From the NCBI GenBank assembly GCA_049969855.1, contig JBMFOB010000019.1:1-26406 (forward strand): a stretch of DNA of 26,406 nucleotides, written 5' to 3'. The translations under genes were made by a program, and so were the position numbers. Numbering within the stretch: position 1 is the first letter of the stretch; every line of letters starts with the position of its first letter. The notes beneath the pieces are model-generated. The model made no database searches. It saw only the letters and a program-made list of their open reading frames with translations, and was not told where the DNA came from. Of the stretch, positions 14,172 to 24,106 are shown in pieces. The stretch comes from Candidatus Bathyarchaeia archaeon. GTDB taxonomy: Archaea; Thermoproteota; Bathyarchaeia; Bathyarchaeales; Bathycorpusculaceae.

Positions 14172-17100
14172 ATGGCTGCTGAAGAAGTAGTCCACAAAGT
14201 CATAGACGGCATCCACTTCAGCCTATTCTCGCCACAAGATGTGCGCAAACTCTCTGTTGTAGAAATTCAAACTCCAGACACTTACGATGAAGACGGCGCC
14301 CCAATAACGGCTGGACTCATGGATGGCAGACTTGGAACCCTTGAACCGAGGCAAAGATGCAAAACCTGTGGAAACACGGCCATCCGTTGTCCAGGTCATT
14401 TCGGTCACATTGAACTTGCAGTTCCAATAGTTCACATTGAATTCACCAAATTAATCTATGAACTTTTGAAATCCACATGCAGAAACTGTGGGCGCATATT
14501 GCTTCCAGATGAAACCATAAAGAGAGCCAGAGCAAGAATTGACAAGAGTCGTCAACTTTTGGGATTGGTTCCAGATGAAGTTTACAAATCTATTACGCAG
14601 GAAATAAAGGCGAAACAGTGTCCCCACTGTGGGGCAGTTCAATATAAGATAGTTTTTGAAAAGCCAACAAAGTTTAGTGAACAAATTCCTGAAAGTGGTT
14701 CAGAACCTTTAACGCCAAGCATGATTAGGGAAAGGATGGAACGCATACCTGACGAAGACCTTGAACTTTTAGGTTTCAATCCAAAAGCTGCCCGTCCAGA
14801 ATGGATGATTCTGCAAGTTTTACCAGTTCCACCAGTTTACGTTCGCCCCTCAATAACGCTGGAATCGGGCATCCGTTCAGAGGATGATTTAACCCACAAA
14901 CTTGTGGACATAATCCGCATTAACCAGCGGCTTAAGGAAAACATGGATGCTGGCGCTCCAACGCTTATAATTCAAGACTTGTCGGAGCTTCTGCAATACC
15001 ATGTTACAACATACTTCAACAATGAAGCCTCAGGGATACCGCCAGCGAGGCATCGTTCTGGAAGAGCATTAAAAACGCTTTCTCAAAGGTTGAAGGGAAA
15101 GGAGGGAAGATTCAGAAGCAACCTTTCCGGAAAAAGGGTTGACTTTTCAGCCCGAACAGTTGTTTCTCCAGACCCAAACCTTGACATAAGCGAGGTTGGC
15201 GTTCCAATAGAAGTTGCCATGCGCTTATCTGTGCCAGAAAAGGTTACGGAATGGAACCTTGAAGAGATGCGGCAACTTGTAGTAAATGGACCTGAAAAGT
15301 ATCCTGGCGCCCTCTACATTATAAGACCCGACGGCAAACGAATAAGACTTGAGTTTGTCACGGATAGGGAAAAGATTGCCGAGGCTTTAATGCCCGGCTT
15401 TATTGTAGAGAGGCATCTTAAAAATGGCGACATAGCCATATTTAACCGTCAACCTTCACTGCACCGCATGTCAATAATGGCTCACCGTGTCCGCGTTTTG
15501 CCCTATAAAACCTTCCGTTTGCACTTGTGCGTTTGTCCACCCTACAACGCAGATTTTGATGGAGACGAAATGAACCTTCACATACCGCAAAGCGAAGAAG
15601 CCCGAACAGAAGCGCTTCTACTAATGCAGGTTCAAGACCAAATTCTCTCGCCAAGGTTTGGTGGTCCAATAATAGGGGCAATTCGAGACTTTATAACAGC
15701 AGCATACCTTTTCACGAGAAGAACAAACTATGTAACGAAAGAAGAAGTAAGCAGGCTGCTGATGGCTGCCGGTTATGAAGGACCTTTACCAGAGCCTAAA
15801 ATTAAAGAGCCCCAGCCATTATGGACGGGTAAGCAGATTTTCAGTCTCTTCTTGCCAAAAGATATGAATTATGTTTTGAAGGCGAACATTTGTCAAGGAT
15901 GCGCAAAATGTGAGGAAGAAGACTGCAAGTATGATGCTTATGTTGTTGTTAAAAATGGTGAACTTATAAGCGGTGTCATAGATAGGCGTTCAATAGGCGC
16001 CGAACAATCAGAAAGTCTCCTCCACAGAATAATAAAAGATTATGGAACCCAAGCTGGACGCGAATTCTTAAACAAGATAACAAGACTGTTGAAGCTTTTC
16101 ATCACAATGCGAGGCTTCACATACTCTTACGACCAGCTTGTACTATCTTCCAAAGCTGAAAGCAAAATAAACAAAACCATGGAAAGAGTCCAGAAAAGAG
16201 TGGAAGAGCTCATAGAAAGTTACCGTAATGGCACGTTACCGAGGCTTCCAGGACAAACTCTGGAAGATTCTTTCGAAATTTACGTAATGAACGAACTTGC
16301 CAAAGCTAGGGATGATGCTGGAAAAATTGCTGATGAAGACTTCACATTGGAAAATGCTGGCATAGTAATGACAAGAACAGGCGCTAGGGGTTCAAGCCTA
16401 AACATTGGACAAATGAGCGCATGCATAGGGCAACAGTCAGTGCGTGGAAAACGAATACTTCGTGGATATGTTGGTAGAGCCTTACCCCACTTCAAGTCTG
16501 GCGACCCAAGCCCAAAGGCAAGAGGCTTCGTTTACTCTTCATATCAGACAGGATTAGACGCCATTGAATTTTTCTTCCACGCCATGGGTGGAAGGGAAGG
16601 CTTGGTAGATACTGCCGTTAGAACACAACAGAGTGGTTACATGCAAAGGAGACTGATTAATGCTCTTGAGCATATACGCTTAGAATATGATGGAACTGTT
16701 AGAAATTCAGCGGGAGACATAATCCAATTTAAATACGGAGAAGACGGCGTTGACCCAGCAAAAAGCGACCATGGAAAAGCCGTTAACGTAAGCCGCCTAG
16801 TTGAACAGTTCAAAATTTCAGAAGAGAAAGGTAGACCAGCCCCAGCAGAATACATCAAAAAACAGCTGAAAGAAGTTGAAGACCAGCTTACACCAGTGCT
16901 CATAGAAGAACTTGAACAAAGCCTAGCCAAGGCGAAACTGAGCAAGGCAGGCGTTGACAAAGCCATAAAATTAACTGTTGAGCATTATAAGCGTGCATTA
17001 ATGGAGCCTGGCGAAGCAGTAGGCATAGTTGCAGCCCAATCAATTGGTGAGCCTGGAACACAGATGACTTTAAGGACATTCCATTATGCTGGAGTTAGAG

Positions 17101-17993
17101 AGCAGAACGTAACCTTGGGTTTGCCAAGATTGATAGAAATTGTTGATGCGCGGAGAATTCCATCCACGCCGATAATGACAATTTACCTAACTGGAGAACA
17201 CAAGAAAAGCAGGGAGGCAGCAGTGAAAATTGCGCGTAACATATATTACACAACTTTGGAGGATTTGGCTGAAACAGTTTATGAAGATCCTATGCATGAG
17301 GAAATAGTTGTTGAGCTTAACAAATCAATGATGGAGGATAGAGGCGTTTCGCTTCAAGAGTTGAAGGAAAAACTGCAGATGCAAAACTGCACAATAAAAG
17401 TAAGGGGCAACAGCATACATATAAAGCCTAAAAAAGCTGAACTCCTCAAAAAAATGTTAGACAAGGTTTCATCATTTTACATTAAAGGAGTTCCAGGCAT
17501 AAAGCGAGTCTTAATCACAGAAGAACATGGAGAATGGGTTATAAGAACTGACGGCTCAAACCTGCCAAAAGTCTTAGAAGTTTACGGCGTAGACACATCA
17601 AGAACAACGACAAACAATGTTCACGAAATAGCCAAAACCTTAGGAATAGAAGCCGCAAGAAACGCCTTAATCCACGAGTCTAAAGGTGTTCTGGAAGATC
17701 AAGGTTTAGATGTTGACGTTCGCCACGTCATGCTTGTCGCTGACATGATGACGTCCACTGGCGAGGTGCAACAGATAGGGCGTCATGGCATAAGCGGCAA
17801 GAAGTCAAGTGTTCTGGCTAGGGCTGCCTTCGAAATAACTGTTCCAAACATTGTTGACGCAGCCATAAAGGGCGAAAGTGACCCCTTGGAAGGGGTAACC
17901 GAAAACGTTATTGTTGGGCAATCTATACCTATTGGCACTGGATTGGTTGAATTATTCATGTCAACCATAGATTTAGGAAGGGAGAACAAATGA
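14172..17993 (+). CDS. rpoA1: DNA-directed RNA polymerase largest subunit (Rpo1), A' and A'' fused
   Basis: NADFDGDEM catalytic motif, CPGHFGHIEL, then in-frame AAQSIGEPGTQMTLRTFH and ENVIVGQSIPIGTG of A''. Confidence 0.97.
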   Translation: MAAEEVVHKVIDGIHFSLFSPQDVRKLSVVEIQTPDTYDEDGAPITAGLMDGRLGTLEPRQRCKTCGNTAIRCPGHFGHIELAVPIVHIEFTKLIYELLKSTCRNCGRILLPDETIKRARARIDKSRQLLGLVPDEVYKSITQEIKAKQCPHCGAVQYKIVFEKPTKFSEQIPESGSEPLTPSMIRERMERIPDEDLELLGFNPKAARPEWMILQVLPVPPVYVRPSITLESGIRSEDDLTHKLVDIIRINQRLKENMDAGAPTLIIQDLSELLQYHVTTYFNNEASGIPPARHRSGRALKTLSQRLKGKEGRFRSNLSGKRVDFSARTVVSPDPNLDISEVGVPIEVAMRLSVPEKVTEWNLEEMRQLVVNGPEKYPGALYIIRPDGKRIRLEFVTDREKIAEALMPGFIVERHLKNGDIAIFNRQPSLHRMSIMAHRVRVLPYKTFRLHLCVCPPYNADFDGDEMNLHIPQSEEARTEALLLMQVQDQILSPRFGGPIIGAIRDFITAAYLFTRRTNYVTKEEVSRLLMAAGYEGPLPEPKIKEPQPLWTGKQIFSLFLPKDMNYVLKANICQGCAKCEEEDCKYDAYVVVKNGELISGVIDRRSIGAEQSESLLHRIIKDYGTQAGREFLNKITRLLKLFITMRGFTYSYDQLVLSSKAESKINKTMERVQKRVEELIESYRNGTLPRLPGQTLEDSFEIYVMNELAKARDDAGKIADEDFTLENAGIVMTRTGARGSSLNIGQMSACIGQQSVRGKRILRGYVGRALPHFKSGDPSPKARGFVYSSYQTGLDAIEFFFHAMGGREGLVDTAVRTQQSGYMQRRLINALEHIRLEYDGTVRNSAGDIIQFKYGEDGVDPAKSDHGKAVNVSRLVEQFKISEEKGRPAPAEYIKKQLKEVEDQLTPVLIEELEQSLAKAKLSKAGVDKAIKLTVEHYKRALMEPGEAVGIVAAQSIGEPGTQMTLRTFHYAGVREQNVTLGLPRLIEIVDARRIPSTPIMTIYLTGEHKKSREAAVKIARNIYYTTLEDLAETVYEDPMHEEIVVELNKSMMEDRGVSLQELKEKLQMQNCTIKVRGNSIHIKPKKAELLKKMLDKVSSFYIKGVPGIKRVLITEEHGEWVIRTDGSNLPKVLEVYGVDTSRTTTNNVHEIAKTLGIEAARNALIHESKGVLEDQGLDVDVRHVMLVADMMTSTGEVQQIGRHGISGKKSSVLARAAFEITVPNIVDAAIKGESDPLEGVTENVIVGQSIPIGTGLVELFMSTIDLGRENK

Positions 17994-19245: not shown

Positions 19246-19800
19246 CTATTTTGACAAAATCATGTCTATGAGGGCTTTTTGGTCTACTTCTGCTCGTGTT
19301 CTCCAATCCAAATATAACTGCTCATTTTCATCCTGCGTTAAATATCCATAGCGAATGTAACGGTCAATGTTTAAGCCCACCTTCCATCCTGGAAGCTTAT
19401 CACGCAATAACTCCTCAACCTCTTTTCGTGGCACTTTGCCCTTTTTCGATATTATGTATGCGATTGTTATTGCCAAGCCTGCCAAATCGTCGATGCGCCA
19501 CCCTATCATTTTAGCTTCTTTCGGCGTTAAATCGCCCCTTAATGTGATGTAGAATCTTGCCTTGTCCAAATCCTCTAAAGTTGGCTTTTCCACAGCTTTT
19601 TCTCCTTCAAAAACCGTTTTAACCTGCAAATCCAACGCTTTTAAATAGTCGTCTAAAATTTTCAAGACTTTTGGATAGTCTGCGCCTAAGGCTTTGCGGA
19701 GTTCCCAGCCTTTCACTCCTGGCTTTTTGTGTCTCCTGTAAAAGAGCATGTGGGTTGCTCGTTTTATTTTGCTTGCGTAATAGCCTTTTCTCTTGCTCAC
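19246..19800 (-). CDS. KITE-family tandem winged-helix protein (Nse1/Nse3-MAGE/ScpB-like)
   Basis: Third gene of the SMC operon; two WH-like halves; C-terminal GYL.....LYLDWRTRAEV; GTG 19800 overlaps the upstream TGA (ORF track opens at ATG 19821). Confidence 0.7.
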   Translation of the reverse strand: MSKRKGYYASKIKRATHMLFYRRHKKPGVKGWELRKALGADYPKVLKILDDYLKALDLQVKTVFEGEKAVEKPTLEDLDKARFYITLRGDLTPKEAKMIGWRIDDLAGLAITIAYIISKKGKVPRKEVEELLRDKLPGWKVGLNIDRYIRYGYLTQDENEQLYLDWRTRAEVDQKALIDMILSK

Positions 19801-20615
19801 TTTAGCTCTCCCTTCTTCCATTTCATCCAGTCTTCTGGCGAAACAGTTATGGGAATGGAAACCAACTGTTTTTTTCCAATTTTTGTTATGGGTTTTTCAT
19901 TTGGTTTTATGAAAATTTCCTCTTCTAACGGATGAACCTCCAAAGTTGCGTATCCGTATGTGACGAGGAAGCTTGTTAAAAAGGCTCTGTGTACTGTTTC
20001 CTCGTAGTTTTCTGCGCCCACAAAATCCCAGTAATGAATTTTTCCGTTTTCTCCAACCTTAGCCTTCAGTTCTTGCCAGAGATTTTCAAGCTCTTCCGAA
20101 AAAGCTTTGTCTCGCAAAATTTTCTGTCTAATAAGTTCTTCTCTTGTTGCAAGGCTTGTTTCAACCTCTGCTGGCGGAAACCCCTTCCACCTTTCTTTCA
20201 GTGGCAGTAAGCTTTCCCAGTATCTTGTGGCTTCTGCCAAGCTGTAAAGCGAAATCTGCTCCATCTCCACTATTGGATGCCAAGCTTGGAGGAAGGCTTC
20301 AACAATTTCTTCCTTTTCTATGCGTGCAAGCTTTTCTTCAAGCAGAAAAGGGTCCGTGTAGAGGGATGTGGAGCGATGTTTAACCCATTCGCTTTGAAGT
20401 TTTATAACTGAAGCCAAATGATGTATTGTTTCAGCGTCTAAGCAAAGGTCTTCTGGGATTTCCCATTCTGGAAAATACTCTTTAACTATGCCTATTAATT
20501 CTTCAACATTTATTAAAAACGGGTCCAGAGAGCGTTCTTCAACTGACTTGCACATTTCTATTATGCGTTGAAGTTTTTCCCTTCCAAATTTCACATGCTC
20601 TTTTTTCGACTGCAT
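19797..20615 (-). CDS. Kleisin (Nse4/ScpA-like)
   Basis: N-terminal LDPF.INV.EL...L.LDA..I..LASVIKLQS helices; C-terminal YWDFV...YEETV..AFLTSFLV..G.A.L WH motif; TAATG-coupled to the SMC gene. Confidence 0.75.
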   Translation of the reverse strand: MQSKKEHVKFGREKLQRIIEMCKSVEERSLDPFLINVEELIGIVKEYFPEWEIPEDLCLDAETIHHLASVIKLQSEWVKHRSTSLYTDPFLLEEKLARIEKEEIVEAFLQAWHPIVEMEQISLYSLAEATRYWESLLPLKERWKGFPPAEVETSLATREELIRQKILRDKAFSEELENLWQELKAKVGENGKIHYWDFVGAENYEETVHRAFLTSFLVTYGYATLEVHPLEEEIFIKPNEKPITKIGKKQLVSIPITVSPEDWMKWKKGELK

Positions 20616-22564
20616 TAGACAACCTCTCTGATTATGGATTTTCCTTCAATGTTTTGAACAGTTATTATGTTTGCCTCTTCCTTTGCAAATGTCACTTGAC
20701 TTGGCGTTATAACGATGTATTGGGCGTTTGCGTCTTTAACAGTTGAAATTAATATTTTTGCGATTAACTCCCGATTTTTCGGGTCCATGTGAATGTCATA
20801 CTCGTCCACGGCTCTGAATGGCGAACGAACATGCTGTTGCAAAGCCAACAAAAAGCTCATGGTTGCTGTTGTTCTTTCTCCGCCACTTTGCGTGTAAGCA
20901 TCAAGTGGAACGGGTTTGCCGCCCTTAAAACCAACATCAATTTCCAATCCTGCAGCCTCTATGTCATGTCCATTAACAAGTTTAACCTCTCCAACGGCTT
21001 GGGCTTGAGCCAAAATCTTCTGATATTCCAAATTTACACGGTCTAGGAGGCTTTGGATAACTGTTCGCCAGTTCTGCATTCGCACTTTAACCTCTTCTAA
21101 AGCCTTTTCACGGTTTTCGGCAACTTGCTGCGCCTTCTCCTTCAACTCTAAATAAAGTTTTGAGTAGGATTCATACATGCGTTCTATGTCCTCTGAAACA
21201 TCTGCAAGCGCAGCCAAATGTCCATCTGTAACACGAATTTCATCCAAAATTTCGCCAACATTCTTTGTAACAGCAATTCTCGGACCAGTTTGCTCAGCCT
21301 TTGCCAAAGCTTCATTCAAATTTGCCTTTGCACTTTTAAGCTCGCCTTCAAGTCTTTCCAAGTTGGCTGTTATGTTTTCTTTGCGGTACTGCAGTAAAGC
21401 CAATTGGATGCGGCTGTCCACAACTTGGTTGCCAACTTTGTCCATATTTTCTTCCAAAAACTTGGTTCTCTTTTGATTCTCGTCAATTTCTACATTCAAC
21501 TTTAAAATTTGCTGGTTAGAGTTTTGCATAAGCTCCTTCAAATTTTCGCTTTTCAGAAACTTGAACTGAGCTGGGTTCTCTTTAATTGTTATGCTTGTTT
21601 GGATTGAAGGATTTCCCTTCTCCAAGATTGCAGTTTCTTTCAGAATTTGCTCGCAAAATAAAATGGTTGCTTCGCTCTTGGCTTTTTCTTTTTCAAGGCT
21701 TAAGCGTTCCGTGAAAAGGGTTTTCCACTCATTTTTTAGCTTTTCAAGTTCGCCCTGTTGAGTTTGCAGTTGCTCCTTCGCTATTTTTGTCTTTTCTTCA
21801 ACCTGATTTAAGGCATCAAGTTCCCTTTTTCTGTTCGCTTCCAAAACCTTAACAATTTCCTCTCTTTTTGAAACTTCCGCCCAGGCAAGTTCCCTCTCCA
21901 AAAATCTCCTCTTAGTCTGCAATTGCTTCTTCGCCTGGTATCTCTCGTACTGTTCCCTCCAATAATTAAGCGTCTGCTCAGCTGATTCCAAAAGCTTGTT
22001 TACAGAATCTTCTTGGCTTAATATTCGCGTTAGCTTTTTCTGAGCTTCTAAAACGTTTTGGCGGTATGGCTCCAACCCCACAGCCGCCTCAACCATTCGC
22101 AGTTTTTCTTGTTGAGAAAGCACAGTGAACTGTTCAACCATGTTCTGATGCATTATTATAAGCATATTTTCCGGGTCAACACCCAACTTTGACAATAACC
22201 TTTCCACGTCAGTTTTTGTGGCAGCCCTATTTTCCAATTCAAACCAGTATTTGCCATCCCGACGCAAAACCCTTGTTAAGAAAATTTGGTCTTTGTTAAC
22301 TTTTGGAACAGGTCGCTTTCCACCCCTCTTCGTGTTATCCAATATTAATGTGACACGGGCTTGGTCTTTCCCCCAACGAATCAAATCGCTCAATTTTCTG
22401 GAACGTTCCGTATACGATTGCCCAAGCGCCACGGAAATAGCCAACAGAAGCGAAGACTTTCCAGAACCATTCGGTCCGCAAATGACGTTTACGCCATGTT
22501 TAAAGGGTACCCTAGCATACTCGTAACTCATGAAGTTTTCAAGGATTACTTCGCTAATCAGCAT
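20615..22564 (-). CDS. Short SMC-family ATPase, Smc5/6-like
   Basis: ENFMSY, Walker A GPNGSGKS, Q-loop IIMHQ, long coiled coils, signature QSGGER, Walker B/D-loop PFRAVDEYDIHMD, QYIVITP. Confidence 0.88.
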   Translation of the reverse strand: MLISEVILENFMSYEYARVPFKHGVNVICGPNGSGKSSLLLAISVALGQSYTERSRKLSDLIRWGKDQARVTLILDNTKRGGKRPVPKVNKDQIFLTRVLRRDGKYWFELENRAATKTDVERLLSKLGVDPENMLIIMHQNMVEQFTVLSQQEKLRMVEAAVGLEPYRQNVLEAQKKLTRILSQEDSVNKLLESAEQTLNYWREQYERYQAKKQLQTKRRFLERELAWAEVSKREEIVKVLEANRKRELDALNQVEEKTKIAKEQLQTQQGELEKLKNEWKTLFTERLSLEKEKAKSEATILFCEQILKETAILEKGNPSIQTSITIKENPAQFKFLKSENLKELMQNSNQQILKLNVEIDENQKRTKFLEENMDKVGNQVVDSRIQLALLQYRKENITANLERLEGELKSAKANLNEALAKAEQTGPRIAVTKNVGEILDEIRVTDGHLAALADVSEDIERMYESYSKLYLELKEKAQQVAENREKALEEVKVRMQNWRTVIQSLLDRVNLEYQKILAQAQAVGEVKLVNGHDIEAAGLEIDVGFKGGKPVPLDAYTQSGGERTTATMSFLLALQQHVRSPFRAVDEYDIHMDPKNRELIAKILISTVKDANAQYIVITPSQVTFAKEEANIITVQNIEGKSIIREVV

Positions 22565-22745
22565 TGAAGCCCATACGCCTCTCTTTGCGGTAAAATAATA
22601 GAGGTGAAAACTCCCTTATTAAAACAATTAGCCAATTTATAATTAAAGCTGCATTCCAGTTATAACAAGAATTTGACTGGTTGGAGGCTAAACTGAACCT
22701 TAAACTTCTTAAGCAAATATTTCCTATTCAAGATTGGTGAAAATT

Positions 22746-23438
22746 ATGGTTGTTGCTGGTAAGGTTTTTAGGCTTTCTGAACCGCTTTCCATTGCGGAAA
22801 TTGCTTCTAGGCTTGAGGGTTATCGCACTGAAGAAGCTTATGAGGAAGGTGATTACAAGTTTACGCTTGTAAGCGAAGTTGTGGGATTATTGCCAAAGTC
22901 AAAAGAGAATATGCTTAGAGGTGTTTATTCGCATGATTATGTGATTCACGTTTTTCATAGGGGTAAGATGGCGCCTTTGCCACGCACTATTGAAGCGGTT
23001 TTCAGTTTTGCCCAACATGATGATAACACTTTCTTGACGATTGTTGAGAAGAAGCGCCTAGCCAATTTTATAGCCAATAAGCTTAGCGAGATTATTTTTG
23101 AAAAGGTTGGTGGCATTGTTGAAGCACGAATTCCGCCAGAAACCCTAAGGGAGTTTCACCTGAAAAATCCTGAAGACACGAAAATTACGTTTTTTGACAA
23201 TGTGGATATTCCAAACGTGAATAAGCTTTCGCTTTACGGTCCAGACTTGATAAACACTTCGCTTTTCGAAGACTATTGTAAGCATGGCGACTTGTGGTAT
23301 GTGGTAGCTAGGGCTAGGGAATATGGCTATGTTGTTGGCATAACAAGAGACGCTTCTGTGACTGTTTTCAATTTGACCGATAAGGAAAAGTATTTGGAGT
23401 ATGTTGCAGAAGAAGTTTACAAGCTAATAATAAAATAA
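22746..23438 (+). CDS. Hypothetical alpha/beta protein divergent from the SMC operon
   Basis: 230-aa ORF; GGTGA SD before ATG 22746 (ORF track opens at TTG 22734). Confidence 0.85.
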   Translation: MVVAGKVFRLSEPLSIAEIASRLEGYRTEEAYEEGDYKFTLVSEVVGLLPKSKENMLRGVYSHDYVIHVFHRGKMAPLPRTIEAVFSFAQHDDNTFLTIVEKKRLANFIANKLSEIIFEKVGGIVEARIPPETLREFHLKNPEDTKITFFDNVDIPNVNKLSLYGPDLINTSLFEDYCKHGDLWYVVARAREYGYVVGITRDASVTVFNLTDKEKYLEYVAEEVYKLIIK

Positions 23439-23500: not shown

Positions 23501-24106
23501 ATGAGGGTTGCTGTTAAGGGTTTATGGAATATTGTTTTAAGCGGCTATCCAAGATCTGGCAAAACAACGCTTGCCAAAAGGTTGATTGCTGAAAACCCAA
23601 AATTTGCAAGAATAGGCGTGGACGAGTTGAGGGAAATGCTTTTCAATGAGGCGCCTCCATGCCGTGACGAATTTCTAGTATATTCCATGATTGCTAACAT
23701 GCGAGATGCCTTGTTGGAGAAAGGTTACAGCGTTGTCATTGATTCAACGGCGCCTGACAATATTACACGTCAGTTTTTGTTAACAACGAGAAGGAAACTT
23801 GTGAACCGCTTGCTTATCATGCTAACCGTGGATAGGGATGTTTTAATTAAAAGAAACATTGAAAAGTTCGGCGATGCAAACGCTGTTATCGCATGGGATA
23901 AGCATTGGCAAAAACCTGCTGGCGACATTCCAGTATTCAAGTTCAAAAGCAGCAATATATTAGAGTTTGAAGTCTACTACGCCCGTTTAATGGAGCTTTT
24001 AGAAAGCGAAGTGCACCCTTTCAAACCAGAATTTCACCTTATCCCTCAGCCCTTAAAGGAGATTCGGGAAGCCCTCAAAAATCTATTAAAGAAACGTAAC
24101 CCATAA
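23501..24106 (+). CDS. P-loop kinase (AAA_33 / polynucleotide-kinase-like)
   Basis: SGYPRSGKTT, DELREML, VVIDST, lid Arg (LIKRN). Confidence 0.85.
   Translation: MRVAVKGLWNIVLSGYPRSGKTTLAKRLIAENPKFARIGVDELREMLFNEAPPCRDEFLVYSMIANMRDALLEKGYSVVIDSTAPDNITRQFLLTTRRKLVNRLLIMLTVDRDVLIKRNIEKFGDANAVIAWDKHWQKPAGDIPVFKFKSSNILEFEVYYARLMELLESEVHPFKPEFHLIPQPLKEIREALKNLLKKRNP

Follow-up and report, generated by a model that had tools for sequence, protein, structure and literature searches.

A short-armed SMC without a hinge domain, encoded in a probable Smc5/6-related operon of a Bathyarchaeia archaeon

Introduction

In TACK and Asgard archaea, operons have been described in which the gene for an SMC5/6-related SMC protein is joined by genes for a kleisin related to Nse4 and a kite resembling Nse1/3; the genomes concerned carry a further operon of the condensin/cohesin-related kind (Yoshinaga & Inagaki 2021, PMC8665677; van Hooff, Raas, Tromer & Eme, bioRxiv 10.1101/2024.01.07.573240). 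In the available text of these two studies, the trees of the SMC, the kleisin and the KITE agree with a relation to Smc5/6, and Bathyarchaeota are named among the carriers (Yoshinaga & Inagaki 2021).

Here we analyze such an operon in a 26,406-nucleotide stretch of a Bathyarchaeia contig (JBMFOB010000019.1, hereafter the window). A preliminary description, made from the DNA alone, had proposed a three-subunit archaeal counterpart of Smc5/6 and had cautioned that the family might not be new. That caution was justified: the gene family is already published in the two studies above, as far as their available text goes, and the window operon is a member of it. Arm length, hinge loss, a CxxC tip and a fourth conserved neighbor are not mentioned in the available text of either study, the preprint's supplement aside, and we found no earlier description, in the literature searched, of the hinge-less short SMC, its CxxC-tipped long kin or a divergent gene for a 234-aa protein. 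We conclude, with a probability of roughly 0.78, that the operon encodes the second SMC complex of this archaeon and belongs to the archaeal 'SMC5/6-related' lineage, sister to eukaryotic Smc5/6.

Results

Three overlapping genes form a conserved operon

The SMC, kleisin and KITE genes lie on the minus strand and overlap at both junctions (Table 1), as had been noted at the outset. The SMC stop codon TAA (20617-20615) and the kleisin ATG (20615-20613) have one base in common, giving TAATG, while the kleisin TGA (19799-19797) is overlapped by the KITE GTG (19800-19798), giving GTGA. Read from this in-frame GTG, the KITE has 184 aa; an alternative start, the ATG at 19821, gives 191 aa and a 25-nt overlap with the kleisin gene. 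The coupling is held in most related loci. With starts set by the longest ORF, the gap between SMC and kleisin was 10 nt or less, mostly an overlap, in 31 of 36 loci that carry all three genes on the same strand, and that between kleisin and KITE was 10 nt or less in all 36. Most of 40 loci keep the three genes side by side, and the coupling of the genes exceeds chance. An A+T-rich, TATA-like stretch, read by eye some 25-35 nt ahead of the SMC start codon, is a putative promoter element of the operon.

Table 1. Coordinates of the operon and its features in the window.
Feature	Position	Strand	Basis
Nse1/Nse3-like KITE, two tandem winged helices, no RING	19246..19821	-	
GTGA kleisin/KITE start-stop overlap	19797..19800	-	read from sequence
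Nse4-like kleisin, 272 aa	19797..20615	-	ORF
Kleisin C-terminal winged-helix region, residues 196-264	19824..20030	-	Pfam Nse4_C E 7.4e-4
TAATG SMC/kleisin stop-start overlap	20613..20617	-	read from sequence
SMC ATPase, probably SMC5/6-related, 649 aa	20615..22564	-	ORF; Pfam SMC_N 3.3e-37
Walker B and D-loop SPFRAVDEYDIHMDPKNR, residues 581-598	20771..20824	-	translation
ABC signature QSGGER, residues 559-564	20873..20890	-	translation
Distal C-helix, residues 382-393, other half of predicted interface	21386..21421	-	two-copy model
Arm-tip loop at usual hinge site, residues 317-336	21557..21616	-	AF2, pLDDT <50, no secondary structure
Distal N-helix, residues 287-314, predicted homodimer interface	21623..21706	-	two-copy model
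Walker A GPNGSGKS, residues 30-37	22454..22477	-	translation
Divergent intergenic region, shared by operon and 234-aa gene	22565..22733	.	
Conserved 234-aa protein, no known family	22734..23438	+	ORF; divergent from operon

The partner subunits are closest to Nse4 and to Nse1/Nse3

The alternative that survives best, although we consider it unlikely, is that the operon is a divergent paralogue of the Smc-ScpAB condensin, in which case its likeness to Nse4 and Nse3 would reflect slow evolution or an origin that all kleisins and KITEs have in common. The same genome does encode a canonical SMC (1184 aa, C3:15959-19513) with ScpA-like and ScpB genes downstream (ScpB: PF04079, 1.6e-39), and its gene order of SMC, kleisin and KITE is matched by the window operon. 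The kleisin argues against this alternative. A profile of 41 kleisin orthologues matched human EID3 (an NSE4 paralogue) at 5.6e-6 and yeast Nse4 at 1.4e-5 in the PDB, compared with 0.39-0.43 for ScpA, a difference of about five orders of magnitude. Pfam Nse4_C was detected in 29 of the 41 orthologues (E ≤0.01, best 3.5e-7) and SMC_ScpA in none. The window kleisin itself scores 20.2 bits for Nse4_C, below the Pfam cut-off of 26, and is the sole Nse4_C match in the six-frame translation of the genome; no protein of the window matched the ScpA or ScpB families of Pfam. These results provide support for the Nse4-like kleisin of the preliminary description.

The KITE was likewise closest to subunits of Smc5/6. 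Its AF2 model (pLDDT 87.3) contains tandem winged helices, and the top four Foldseek matches were MAGE-G1, Nse3 and Nse1 (2.7e-5 to 1.9e-4). JetB (7e-4), ScpB (1.3e-3) and MukE (7e-3) followed lower down, so that the presence of ScpB and JetB among the matches offers something to the condensin-paralogue alternative. In full-length VIA comparisons, however, the Z-score was 13.4 for Nse3 (7dg2_C; rmsd 4.2, 169 residues aligned) and 10.8-11.2 for Nse1/Nse3 among the other chains, versus 9.1 for ScpB. ESM features placed the protein in the MAGE cluster at 0.91. Among the 41 KITE orthologues, Pfam matched MAGE in six and SMC_Nse1 in six (E up to 0.1), and SMC_ScpB was not among the families matched; the window's own KITE had no Pfam match, and the sequence profile gave no significant match in the PDB (Nse3 at 0.37). 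The fold comparison that had been proposed as a check thus agrees with an Nse1/3-like KITE, with weak support at the level of sequence.

The SMC head carries Smc5/6-type motifs

The head motifs quoted previously are all present, namely QSGGER, SPFRAVDEYDIHMDPKNR and QYIVITP (the last at residues 615-621). Across 36 SMC sequences, the invariant positions comprise G30, P31, N32, G33, G35, K36 and S37 of Walker A, S560-R564 of the signature, and P582, R584, A585, D587, E588, H592, D594, N597 and R598 of the Walker B/D-loop region. The Q ahead of SGGE is common to the window SMC and the Smc5 clade. The motifs PFR.VDE, DE..[VQ].MD..N, MDP.N and Q...TP/ITP occur in the window SMC, its kin, ten Smc5-clade rows and seven Smc6-clade rows. 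In contrast, PFR.VDE, MDP.N and ITP are absent from three canonical archaeal SMCs and from Rad50-like rows; the three canonical proteins carry FY.FDE.DAHLD and ITL instead, and F(Y).FDE.DAHLD and ITL are likewise found in the genome's own canonical SMC. That the window SMC is of the Smc5/6 type in its Walker B, D-loop and ITP motifs argues against a condensin paralogue, and the assignment of these motifs in the preliminary description stands for the sequences compared.

Overall similarity was divided. A phmmer search of the PDB gave 103.5 bits for human SMC6 and 97 for yeast Smc5, followed by Smc3 (74), Smc1 (61), Smc2 (54) and Rad50 (35). The top single PDB match was nevertheless Pyrococcus Smc (sequence 107.3 bits, fold 5.1e-23), and the best NCBIfam model was SMC_prok_A (176 bits, far under its cut-off); both matches are to prokaryotic SMC and favor the condensin-paralogue alternative. 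Beyond the family itself, the best full-length matches among 1.84 billion representatives were proteins of 1000-1130 aa, two of which, one per clade, matched human SMC6 (349.8 bits) and SMC5 (500.6 bits) over their whole length.

We placed the head in a maximum-likelihood (ML) tree of 52 rows that holds only three canonical SMCs and is without Smc1-4, bacterial SMC, MukB, JetC and named ASRP. From a Rad50-like root, the canonical SMCs branched first (99), followed by a clade of 43 rows (96) within which the window's family (92) forms the sister group of Smc6 (100) plus Smc5 (100), joined at SH-aLRT 91. This topology, with which the published trees of the three subunits agree as far as their available text goes, favors Smc5/6 over canonical SMC. 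An approximately unbiased (AU) test, however, did not reject a tree that groups the family with canonical archaeal SMC (delta lnL 8.66, p-AU 0.314, under thin outgroup sampling), and this is a point for the condensin paralogue. The head tree suggested earlier thus puts the family beside Smc5 and Smc6, with Rad50-like proteins as outgroup; the motifs concur with a Smc5/6-related head, while the AU test and the Pyrococcus match keep the canonical grouping in play.

About half of the phylum carries the operon, in conserved synteny

A search of 401 genomes of the phylum turned up a KITE of this family in 198, spread over 86 of 162 genera, at 42-55% identity and in conserved synteny. The window's genome has one SMC gene of the Smc5/6-related type and one KITE match. 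As the preliminary description had stated for the operon, no gene for Nse2, the SP-RING SUMO ligase, was detected: the best six-frame match to PF11789 (zf-Nse) in the genome scored 16.4 bits against a cut-off of 27 and fell in a stop-containing frame of 34 aa.

These data also bear on a second alternative, that the operon uses its SMC to defend the cell from plasmids or viruses, in the manner of Wadjet (JetABCD) or Lamassu (LmuB), rather than being chromosomal housekeeping machinery. PADLOC scored the SMC head at 97.9 bits for mad3 and 70.6 bits for LmuB, and LmuB likewise has short arms. The same search, however, left kleisin and KITE without a match and gave JetC just 28 bits on the SMC. Among the window ORFs, no nuclease or other effector gene lies within the operon, whose surroundings comprise rpoA, L30e, nusA-like and cobalamin/mutase genes. 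The wide and syntenic distribution is unlike that of patchy defense islands. Moreover, in three of the five genomes examined (G008, G057 and G080; 97, 92 and 99% complete), no long SMC_N frame and no ScpB were found. We regard a role in defense as somewhat less likely still than descent from the condensin. Instead, we take the Smc5/6-related complex to be a housekeeping genome-maintenance motor, which may act in chromosome folding or on replication/repair intermediates.

A protein of 234 aa, which may in fact begin at the ATG at 22746, is encoded divergently from the operon (Table 1). Its homologue lies upstream of the SMC gene in 15 of 40 loci, is divergent in all 15, and is separated from the SMC gene by at most 149 bp in ten of them. 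The protein occurs in 196 of the 401 genomes; counted by family, its tallies equal those of the KITE in 26 of 30 families. It had no match in Pfam, NCBIfam, the PDB or PADLOC. It is a candidate accessory factor of the operon.

The SMC has short arms and lacks a hinge domain

The window SMC consists of an N-terminal head (residues 1-164), an arm helix (165-316), a tip loop (317-336), a return helix (339-426), a region of joint-like breaks (427-459), a further helix (460-520) and a C-terminal head (521-649). No Pfam SMC_hinge (PF06470) match was detected in it, and its AF2 model (pLDDT 84.8) shows helix, 20-residue loop and helix at the arm tip. The window SMC is thus without a hinge domain. Its arm of about 150 residues, or about 22 nm, is half the usual length and folds back through a short, variable loop; in the family alignment, the tip is hypervariable in both length and sequence. 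Complete SMC ORFs measured 572-756 aa in all 35 relatives, from loci chosen by their KITE match. Rare long kin (P0254, P0266, P0270 and P0304) carry C[DE][KR]CGS at the arm tip, a CxxC reminiscent of the Rad50 hook, whereas the mid-region and tip of the window SMC have no CxxC. The missing hinge had gone unmentioned in the preliminary description.

A two-copy model predicts that the arms run in parallel and meet in a distal four-helix bundle, with symmetric i-to-i contacts (295-295, 292-292). Its score, which is the model's own confidence and no measurement, was 0.55, versus 0.01 for the best of three controls. Runs agreed in at least 87% of contacts, with pLDDT of at least 81. The score mark was attained by 20 of 30 proteins whose solved structure is a pair of one and the same chain, versus 1 of 23 whose solved structure is a single chain, counts that hold only roughly because our own alignment was used for the two-copy model. 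The shortest family members are without the aligned segment that holds the predicted interface; there is therefore no family-wide interface in that register.

We consider very improbable a Rad50-, RecN- or ASRP/ClsN-type ATPase without a kleisin ring, followed by two unrelated genes: the short arms, the missing hinge and NCBIfam scores for Rad50 (75.2 bits) and ASRP (NF045487, 67.8 bits) would fit, but these scores are far under their cut-offs (700 and 300) and below that of SMC_prok_A, Rad50-like rows stand as outgroup in the tree (99), the tip has no CxxC, Mre11-Rad50 is encoded elsewhere in the genome (contig C10), and what follows the SMC gene is a kleisin gene and a KITE gene that remain coupled to it throughout the phylum.

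Discussion

The proposal of an archaeal Smc5/6 counterpart is favored by the kleisin, the KITE, the head motifs and the ML tree, whereas the AU test retains the grouping with canonical SMC. In a complex of the Smc5/6-related kind, two SMC copies would engage their heads on ATP, and a single kleisin would link the two heads, binding one at its neck and the other at its cap, with a KITE homodimer seated on the kleisin. Kleisin and KITE may then clamp DNA onto the ATPase heads, as happens in both Smc5/6-Nse1/3/4 and Smc-ScpAB. If the arms are parallel and closed by the distal bundle (residues 287-314 and 382-393), the SMC lumen would be small. Gene structure, family relations, the missing hinge and the distribution come directly from the data, and the subunit contacts, the stoichiometry, the DNA clamping and the cellular role are inferred.

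Among known systems, the archaeal SMC5/6-related complexes have the same operon as the window, in the available text of their descriptions. With eukaryotic Smc5/6, the window operon shares the Q-SGGE, PFR.VDE, MDP.N and ITP head motifs, the C-terminal winged helix of an Nse4-type kleisin and a tandem winged-helix KITE of the MAGE/Nse1 type. It has one SMC gene, presumably for a homodimer, in place of the Smc5/Smc6 heterodimer, and one KITE gene, without a RING, in place of Nse1 and Nse3; its genome has no Nse2 match, and its SMC has no hinge and arms of about half the length. Smc-ScpAB has in common with it the gene order, the three-part architecture and the ABC-type head, and the proximal arm and a joint-like break are similar to those in the head-joint structure of Pyrococcus Smc (5xei). 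The window's partner subunits, in contrast, lack ScpA/ScpB Pfam matches, and the canonical SMC is far longer.

MukBEF and Wadjet JetABC(D) are also complexes of SMC, kleisin and KITE, and JetB and MukE were among the fold matches of the window KITE. Unlike Wadjet, the window has no PADLOC match for kleisin or KITE, a weak JetC match on the SMC and no JetD-type gene; the gene order of Wadjet is also different. Rad50 resembles the window SMC in its short arms without a hinge and the long kin in its CxxC tip, but the window SMC has no CxxC, and the partner of Rad50 is Mre11 rather than a kleisin and a KITE.

Departures from the usual SMC arm and hinge have precedents. The engineered Mini-Smc of B. 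subtilis and the zinc-hook chimera Smc(Zh) are functional, according to the available text (Bürmann et al. 2017, PMC5344682), and 'hinge-less' SMC variants of oceanic Actinobacteria are reported from metagenome catalogues (PMC12153180). The latter are bacterial, and the available text gives no partner genes and no link to Smc5/6. With its missing hinge and its arm of about 150 residues, the window SMC differs from every characterized SMC-kleisin-KITE complex.

Gene coupling and genomic setting

The preliminary description had joined three minus-strand genes through TAATG and GTGA stop/start overlaps, and both overlaps were present in the sequence where they had been placed (see table). Gene coupling is conserved among related loci. 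Of 40 loci fetched by a KITE match, 36 carry all three genes on one strand; with starts set at the longest ORF, the gap from SMC to kleisin is at most 10 nt in 31 of these 36 and the gap from kleisin to KITE is at most 10 nt in all of them. The operon is followed by genes for rpoA, L30e and a NusA-like KH protein and preceded by a 234-aa ORF, a P-loop kinase-like gene and cobalamin/methylmalonyl-CoA mutase genes.

Features of the operon, its divergent neighbor and the AF2 model of the SMC protein (nucleotides of the window for genes and overlaps; residues of the window SMC for the model)
Feature	Position	Strand	Remark
SMC ORF	20615-22564	minus	649 aa
Kleisin ORF	19797-20615	minus	272 aa
KITE ORF	19246-19821	minus	191 aa; 184 aa if the in-frame GTG at 19800 is the start
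TAATG overlap, SMC/kleisin	20613-20617	minus	read in the sequence
GTGA overlap, kleisin/KITE	19797-19800	minus	read in the sequence
234-aa ORF	22734-23438	plus	divergent from SMC across 170-181 bp
Head	residues 1-164		AF2 model
Arm helix	residues 165-316		AF2 model
Tip loop, 20 residues	residues 317-336		AF2 model; pLDDT <50
Return helix	residues 339-426		AF2 model
Two short breaks	residues 427-459		best fold match there is the Pyrococcus head-joint structure 5xei
Helix (the C-head follows it)	residues 460-520		AF2 model

The assembly itself (1.28 Mb in 49 contigs, 93% complete) encodes a canonical SMC of 1184 aa on contig C3, followed by an ScpA-like gene (232 aa) and ScpB (208 aa; PF04079 1.6e-39). 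Given this separate canonical SMC-ScpA-ScpB set, the window operon represents a second SMC-type system and not the ordinary condensin of the cell. Contig C10 of the same genome encodes an Mre11 (401 aa)/short Rad50 (695 aa) pair (C10:45609-48898).

Two other genes of the window deserve mention. RNA polymerase subunit A is present as a single 1273-aa ORF (14172-17993, plus strand); this subunit is split into A' and A'' in most archaea, with unsplit forms on record for some TACK lineages. The 201-aa P-loop kinase-like protein (23501-24106, plus strand; AAA_33 1.2e-11, with weak likeness to KTI12 and PSTK) had no homologue across the 40 related loci, so a link with the operon is improbable.

The SMC head and its probable relation to Smc5 and Smc6

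The ATPase-head motifs quoted in the preliminary description were found in the SMC translation (QSGGER at 559-564, SPFRAVDEYDIHMDPKNR at 581-598 and QYIVITP at 615-621). Pfam assigned the protein to SMC_N (3.3e-37), and its NCBIfam matches all fell far under their cut-offs (SMC_prok_A, 176 bits against 729; Rad50, 75 against 700; ASRP, 68 against 300). The PDB sequence ranking was headed by Pyrococcus Smc (107 bits), human SMC6 (103.5), yeast Smc5 (97), human SMC5 (95) and yeast Smc6 (84), with Smc3 (74), Smc1 (61), Smc2 (54) and Rad50 (35) further down. A Foldseek search with the SMC model could not tell Smc5/6 apart from the other SMCs.

In a representative library of 1.84 billion proteins, ~60 of the matching clusters are full-length, with 550-690 aa and 36-69% identity to the window SMC. 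Beyond this family and fragments, the next full-length matches were proteins of 1000-1130 aa that form two clades, each named from a PDB search with one member: P0363 aligns over its whole length to human SMC6 (349.8 bits), and P0358 matches human SMC5 (500.6 bits).

We then compared head motifs across these groups. The forms PFR.VDE, DE(Y/F)D(I/V)HMDP.NR and Q(Y)I.ITP of the family are common to the Smc5 clade (QSGGE., PFRVVDEINQGMDP.NE, QYFLITP) and the Smc6 clade (PFR..DEFDV.MD..NR, ..TP). In their place, the canonical archaeal SMCs (three rows) have F(Y).FDE.DAHLD and ITL, and the Rad50-like rows have LDEP and TH. The Smc5/6-type motif argument of the preliminary description thus holds on the Smc5-clade, Smc6-clade and canonical rows actually compared, and at the level of sequence the motif table is independent support for a relation to Smc5/6.

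A head tree (52 rows, 383 columns; quick IQ-TREE run, LG+C20+F+G4 PMSF) was computed after dropping 19 of the 36 aligned family rows and was rooted on six Rad50-like rows. Canonical archaeal SMCs (3 rows, SH-aLRT 99) branch first, followed by a 43-row clade (96) in which the family (92) is sister to the Smc6 clade (7 rows, 100) and the Smc5 clade (10 rows, 100), joined at 91. The alternative that the family belongs with canonical SMC was not rejected by an AU test (delta lnL 8.66, p 0.314), and the sampling was without Smc1-4, bacterial SMC, MukB, JetC and named ASRP. Given this p value and the thin sampling, the head tree is suggestive but not decisive of a sister relationship between the family and Smc5 plus Smc6.

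The kleisin and KITE subunits

As a single sequence, the kleisin matched Pfam Nse4_C at 7.4e-4 (20.2 bits, under the cut-off of 26) and yeast Nse4 in the PDB at a non-significant 0.41. A profile of 41 orthologues matched human EID3, an NSE4 paralogue (chain of the human SMC5/6 entry 9lwi; 5.6e-6), and yeast Nse4 (1.4e-5) in alignments spanning the C-terminal winged helix; the same profile reached ScpA chains at 0.39-0.43. Nse4_C was found in 29 of 41 orthologues at E <=0.01 (best 3.5e-7) and SMC_ScpA in none of the 41. Across the genome, searched in all six frames, the kleisin gene was the only Nse4_C match.

The window KITE protein had no sequence match in Pfam, NCBIfam or the PDB; neither the single sequence nor the profile gave a significant PDB match, the best long profile match being Nse3 (7dg2_C) at 0.37. 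Its AF2 model (41 sequences, pLDDT 87.3) contains two winged-helix units, and the protein ends right after the second, leaving no RING. Foldseek ranked MAGE-G1, the human NSE3, first (2.7e-5), followed by Nse3 (1.3e-4), NSE1 (1.3e-4) and Nse1 (1.9e-4; TM 0.66), with JetB (7e-4), ScpB (1.3e-3) and MukE (7e-3) next. VIA-align gave Z 13.4 for Nse3 7dg2_C (rmsd 4.2 over 169 residues), 10.8-11.2 for other full-length Nse1/Nse3 chains and 9.1 for ScpB. An ESM feature search returned a MAGE cluster at 0.91. Six of 41 orthologues touch Pfam MAGE (best 2.8e-4) and six touch SMC_Nse1 (best 0.015), compared with none of the 41 for the ScpB Pfam model. The assignments of an Nse4-like kleisin and an Nse1/3-like KITE are therefore upheld, the first by a profile that favors EID3/Nse4 over ScpA and the second by a predicted fold closest to MAGE-G1/Nse3/Nse1, above ScpB. 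We infer subunit contacts, stoichiometry and function from homology.

The KITE is unusually conserved, at ~90% identity among many Bathyarchaeia clusters versus ~83% for the kleisin; across the phylum, outside the class, its identity is 42-55%.

A short SMC arm without a hinge

Pfam SMC_hinge was not detected in the window SMC, and the AF2 model (36 sequences, pLDDT 84.8) contains no globular tip domain. In the 36-sequence alignment, the heads and proximal arm are conserved and the distal arm and tip are free in length and sequence, some family members lacking a further ~130 alignment columns. In the 40 fetched loci, the 35 SMC ORFs that are complete all measure 572-756 aa; two further matches run off the end of a locus or contig, and three loci have no SMC match inside 6.5 kb.

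A two-copy model of residues 165-520 scored 0.55, versus 0.01 in the best of 3 controls. This value lies above a mark that 20 of 30 proteins solved as one-chain pairs attained, compared with 1 of 23 proteins with single-chain structures, a calibration that applies roughly here because a custom alignment was supplied. The runs agreed in at least 87% of contacts, with pLDDT of at least 81. The predicted interface comprises residues 287-314, 333-337 and 382-393 in both copies, and its symmetric i-to-i contacts imply that the arms run parallel, with the two heads at one end, and meet in a distal four-helix bundle. The arms are thus predicted to be closed by this parallel bundle, the score being the model's own confidence. 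The shortest relatives are without the predicted interface segment.

Relatives with other arm tips

Four relatives, P0254 (1047 aa), P0266 (1028 aa), P0270 (1016 aa) and P0304 (795 aa, probably cut), match the window SMC at 45-51% over 12-308 and 383-648. Between the two matched stretches sit ~460 residues of coiled coil with a conserved C[DE][KR]CGS..L...QW at the midpoint, which places a CxxC apex at positions about 522-545. This motif is a candidate Rad50-like zinc hook in SMC5/6-related proteins. Of 63 family proteins of at least 540 aa, 4 have it, and none of the 36 aligned operon SMCs does; the long CxxC forms nest within the short family in the head tree.

Other tips were found nearby. 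The near-basal family member P0300 (982 aa) has a Pro/Gly-rich, non-helical and globular-looking apex of ~170 aa that matched neither Pfam SMC_hinge at E <=0.01 nor, significantly, any PDB chain. In a neighboring clade, P0339 (835 aa) has a Pfam hinge (4.6e-11), but its neighbors P0326 (633 aa) and P0332 (628 aa) do not. Together with the hinge-less family, this pattern suggests that the hinge was lost more than once and hints at an independent loss in the neighboring clade.

Distribution and probable role

The KITE was found in 198 of the 401 genomes sampled from the phylum (86 of 162 genera; 148 of 335 when high-quality genomes are counted) and was not found in several large families (0/56, 0/23, 0/16, 0/15 and 0/12). 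A search for related loci in genome contigs gave 456 relatives, the best 80 of which are all Bathyarchaeia/-ota. Among five genomes checked, two (G396 and G026) carry a long SMC and ScpB alongside the short SMC. The other three (G008, G057 and G080; 97, 92 and 99% complete) yielded the short SMC only, with no SMC_N frame >1000 aa and no ScpB; in these genomes the hinge-less complex is possibly the sole SMC-kleisin complex. PADLOC gave no match for the kleisin or the KITE, and the operon contains no effector gene. Taken with the distribution, these results disfavor a defense island and argue for a housekeeping role.

A divergent neighboring gene

Homologues of the 234-aa gene were detected in 15 of the 40 loci; each of the 15 lies upstream of SMC in divergent orientation, 10 of them within 149 bp of it. 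The gene occurs in 196 of 401 genomes. Across the 30 families covered by both searches, it and the KITE are both present in 17, neither is found in 9 and the two disagree in 4, tallies in which kin are not independent; the four disagreeing families are represented by one or two genomes. Two genera of the family to which the window belongs have the operon but not the 234-aa gene (6/10 versus 0/10; 3/3 versus 0/3). The protein is well conserved, with a mean column identity of 60%, and had no match in Pfam, NCBIfam or PADLOC, nor in the PDB by single sequence or by profile. In the ESM atlas, only unnamed clusters came up; likenesses to CENP-L (0.83) and RdgC (0.78) are leads at chance level and were set aside. 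The 234-aa protein is a candidate accessory factor and nothing more.

Relation to published work and known systems

The core proposal of the preliminary description, an archaeal Smc5/6-like operon, is correct but already published at the phylogenomic level. Yoshinaga and Inagaki 2021 place SMCs of Crenarchaeota, Verstraetearchaeota, Thaumarchaeota and Bathyarchaeota in the SMC5+6 clan (PMC8665677), and van Hooff et al. group Nse4 with a TACK/Asgard kleisin clade, describe the Nse1/3-like kites as archaeal and report a non-significant AU test on their SMC tree (bioRxiv 10.1101/2024.01.07.573240). With the operon family already in print, this part is not a discovery. Our literature search, with the supplement of van Hooff et al. 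outside its scope, found no hinge loss or hook in archaeal SMC5/6-related proteins and, in the text it covered, no description of the co-distributed 234-aa neighbor gene; nor did it find a functional study of archaeal SMC5/6-related complexes. A hinge-less, half-length SMC with a predicted distal helical closure, together with its CxxC-tipped kin, looks new.

Our overall reading is tentative, and we give it a probability of about 0.3. The archaeal sister of eukaryotic Smc5/6 would be a hinge-less SMC with half-length arms, found across most Thermoproteota and still paired with a kleisin and a KITE. Its arms would be closed by a parallel distal four-helix bundle or, in one sub-clade, by a Rad50-type zinc hook on re-lengthened arms; a fourth, 234-aa partner would be encoded divergently, and the complex would be the sole SMC complex where Smc-ScpAB is absent. 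If this reading is true, a natural SMC-kleisin-KITE machine can do without a hinge, and whether the Smc5/6 ancestor ever had one becomes an open question.

Among eukaryotic SMC complexes, Smc5/6 is the one least understood, and what is known of its archaeal relatives comes from phylogenomics only. A homodimeric version built from three proteins would offer a simple model of DNA handling by the Nse1/3/4-head module. If the hinge is absent and closure is by a short helical bundle, the complex would provide a natural test of two questions: do SMC motors require a hinge and arms of 50 nm, and what is the smallest unit that can entrap DNA? As a possible new accessory subunit, the co-distributed 234-aa protein can be put to the test.

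Precedents for altered SMC tips exist. Hinge-less SMCs have been noted in oceanic Actinobacteria (PMC12153180), and in B. subtilis functional shortened Smc proteins and a Smc/zinc-hook chimera have been engineered (PMC5344682). Compared with an ordinary Smc, whose arm is given as ~47 nm by Bürmann et al., the predicted arm of the window SMC is ~22 nm long at ~0.15 nm per residue, and the CxxC-tipped relatives would be a natural counterpart of the engineered Smc/zinc-hook chimera.
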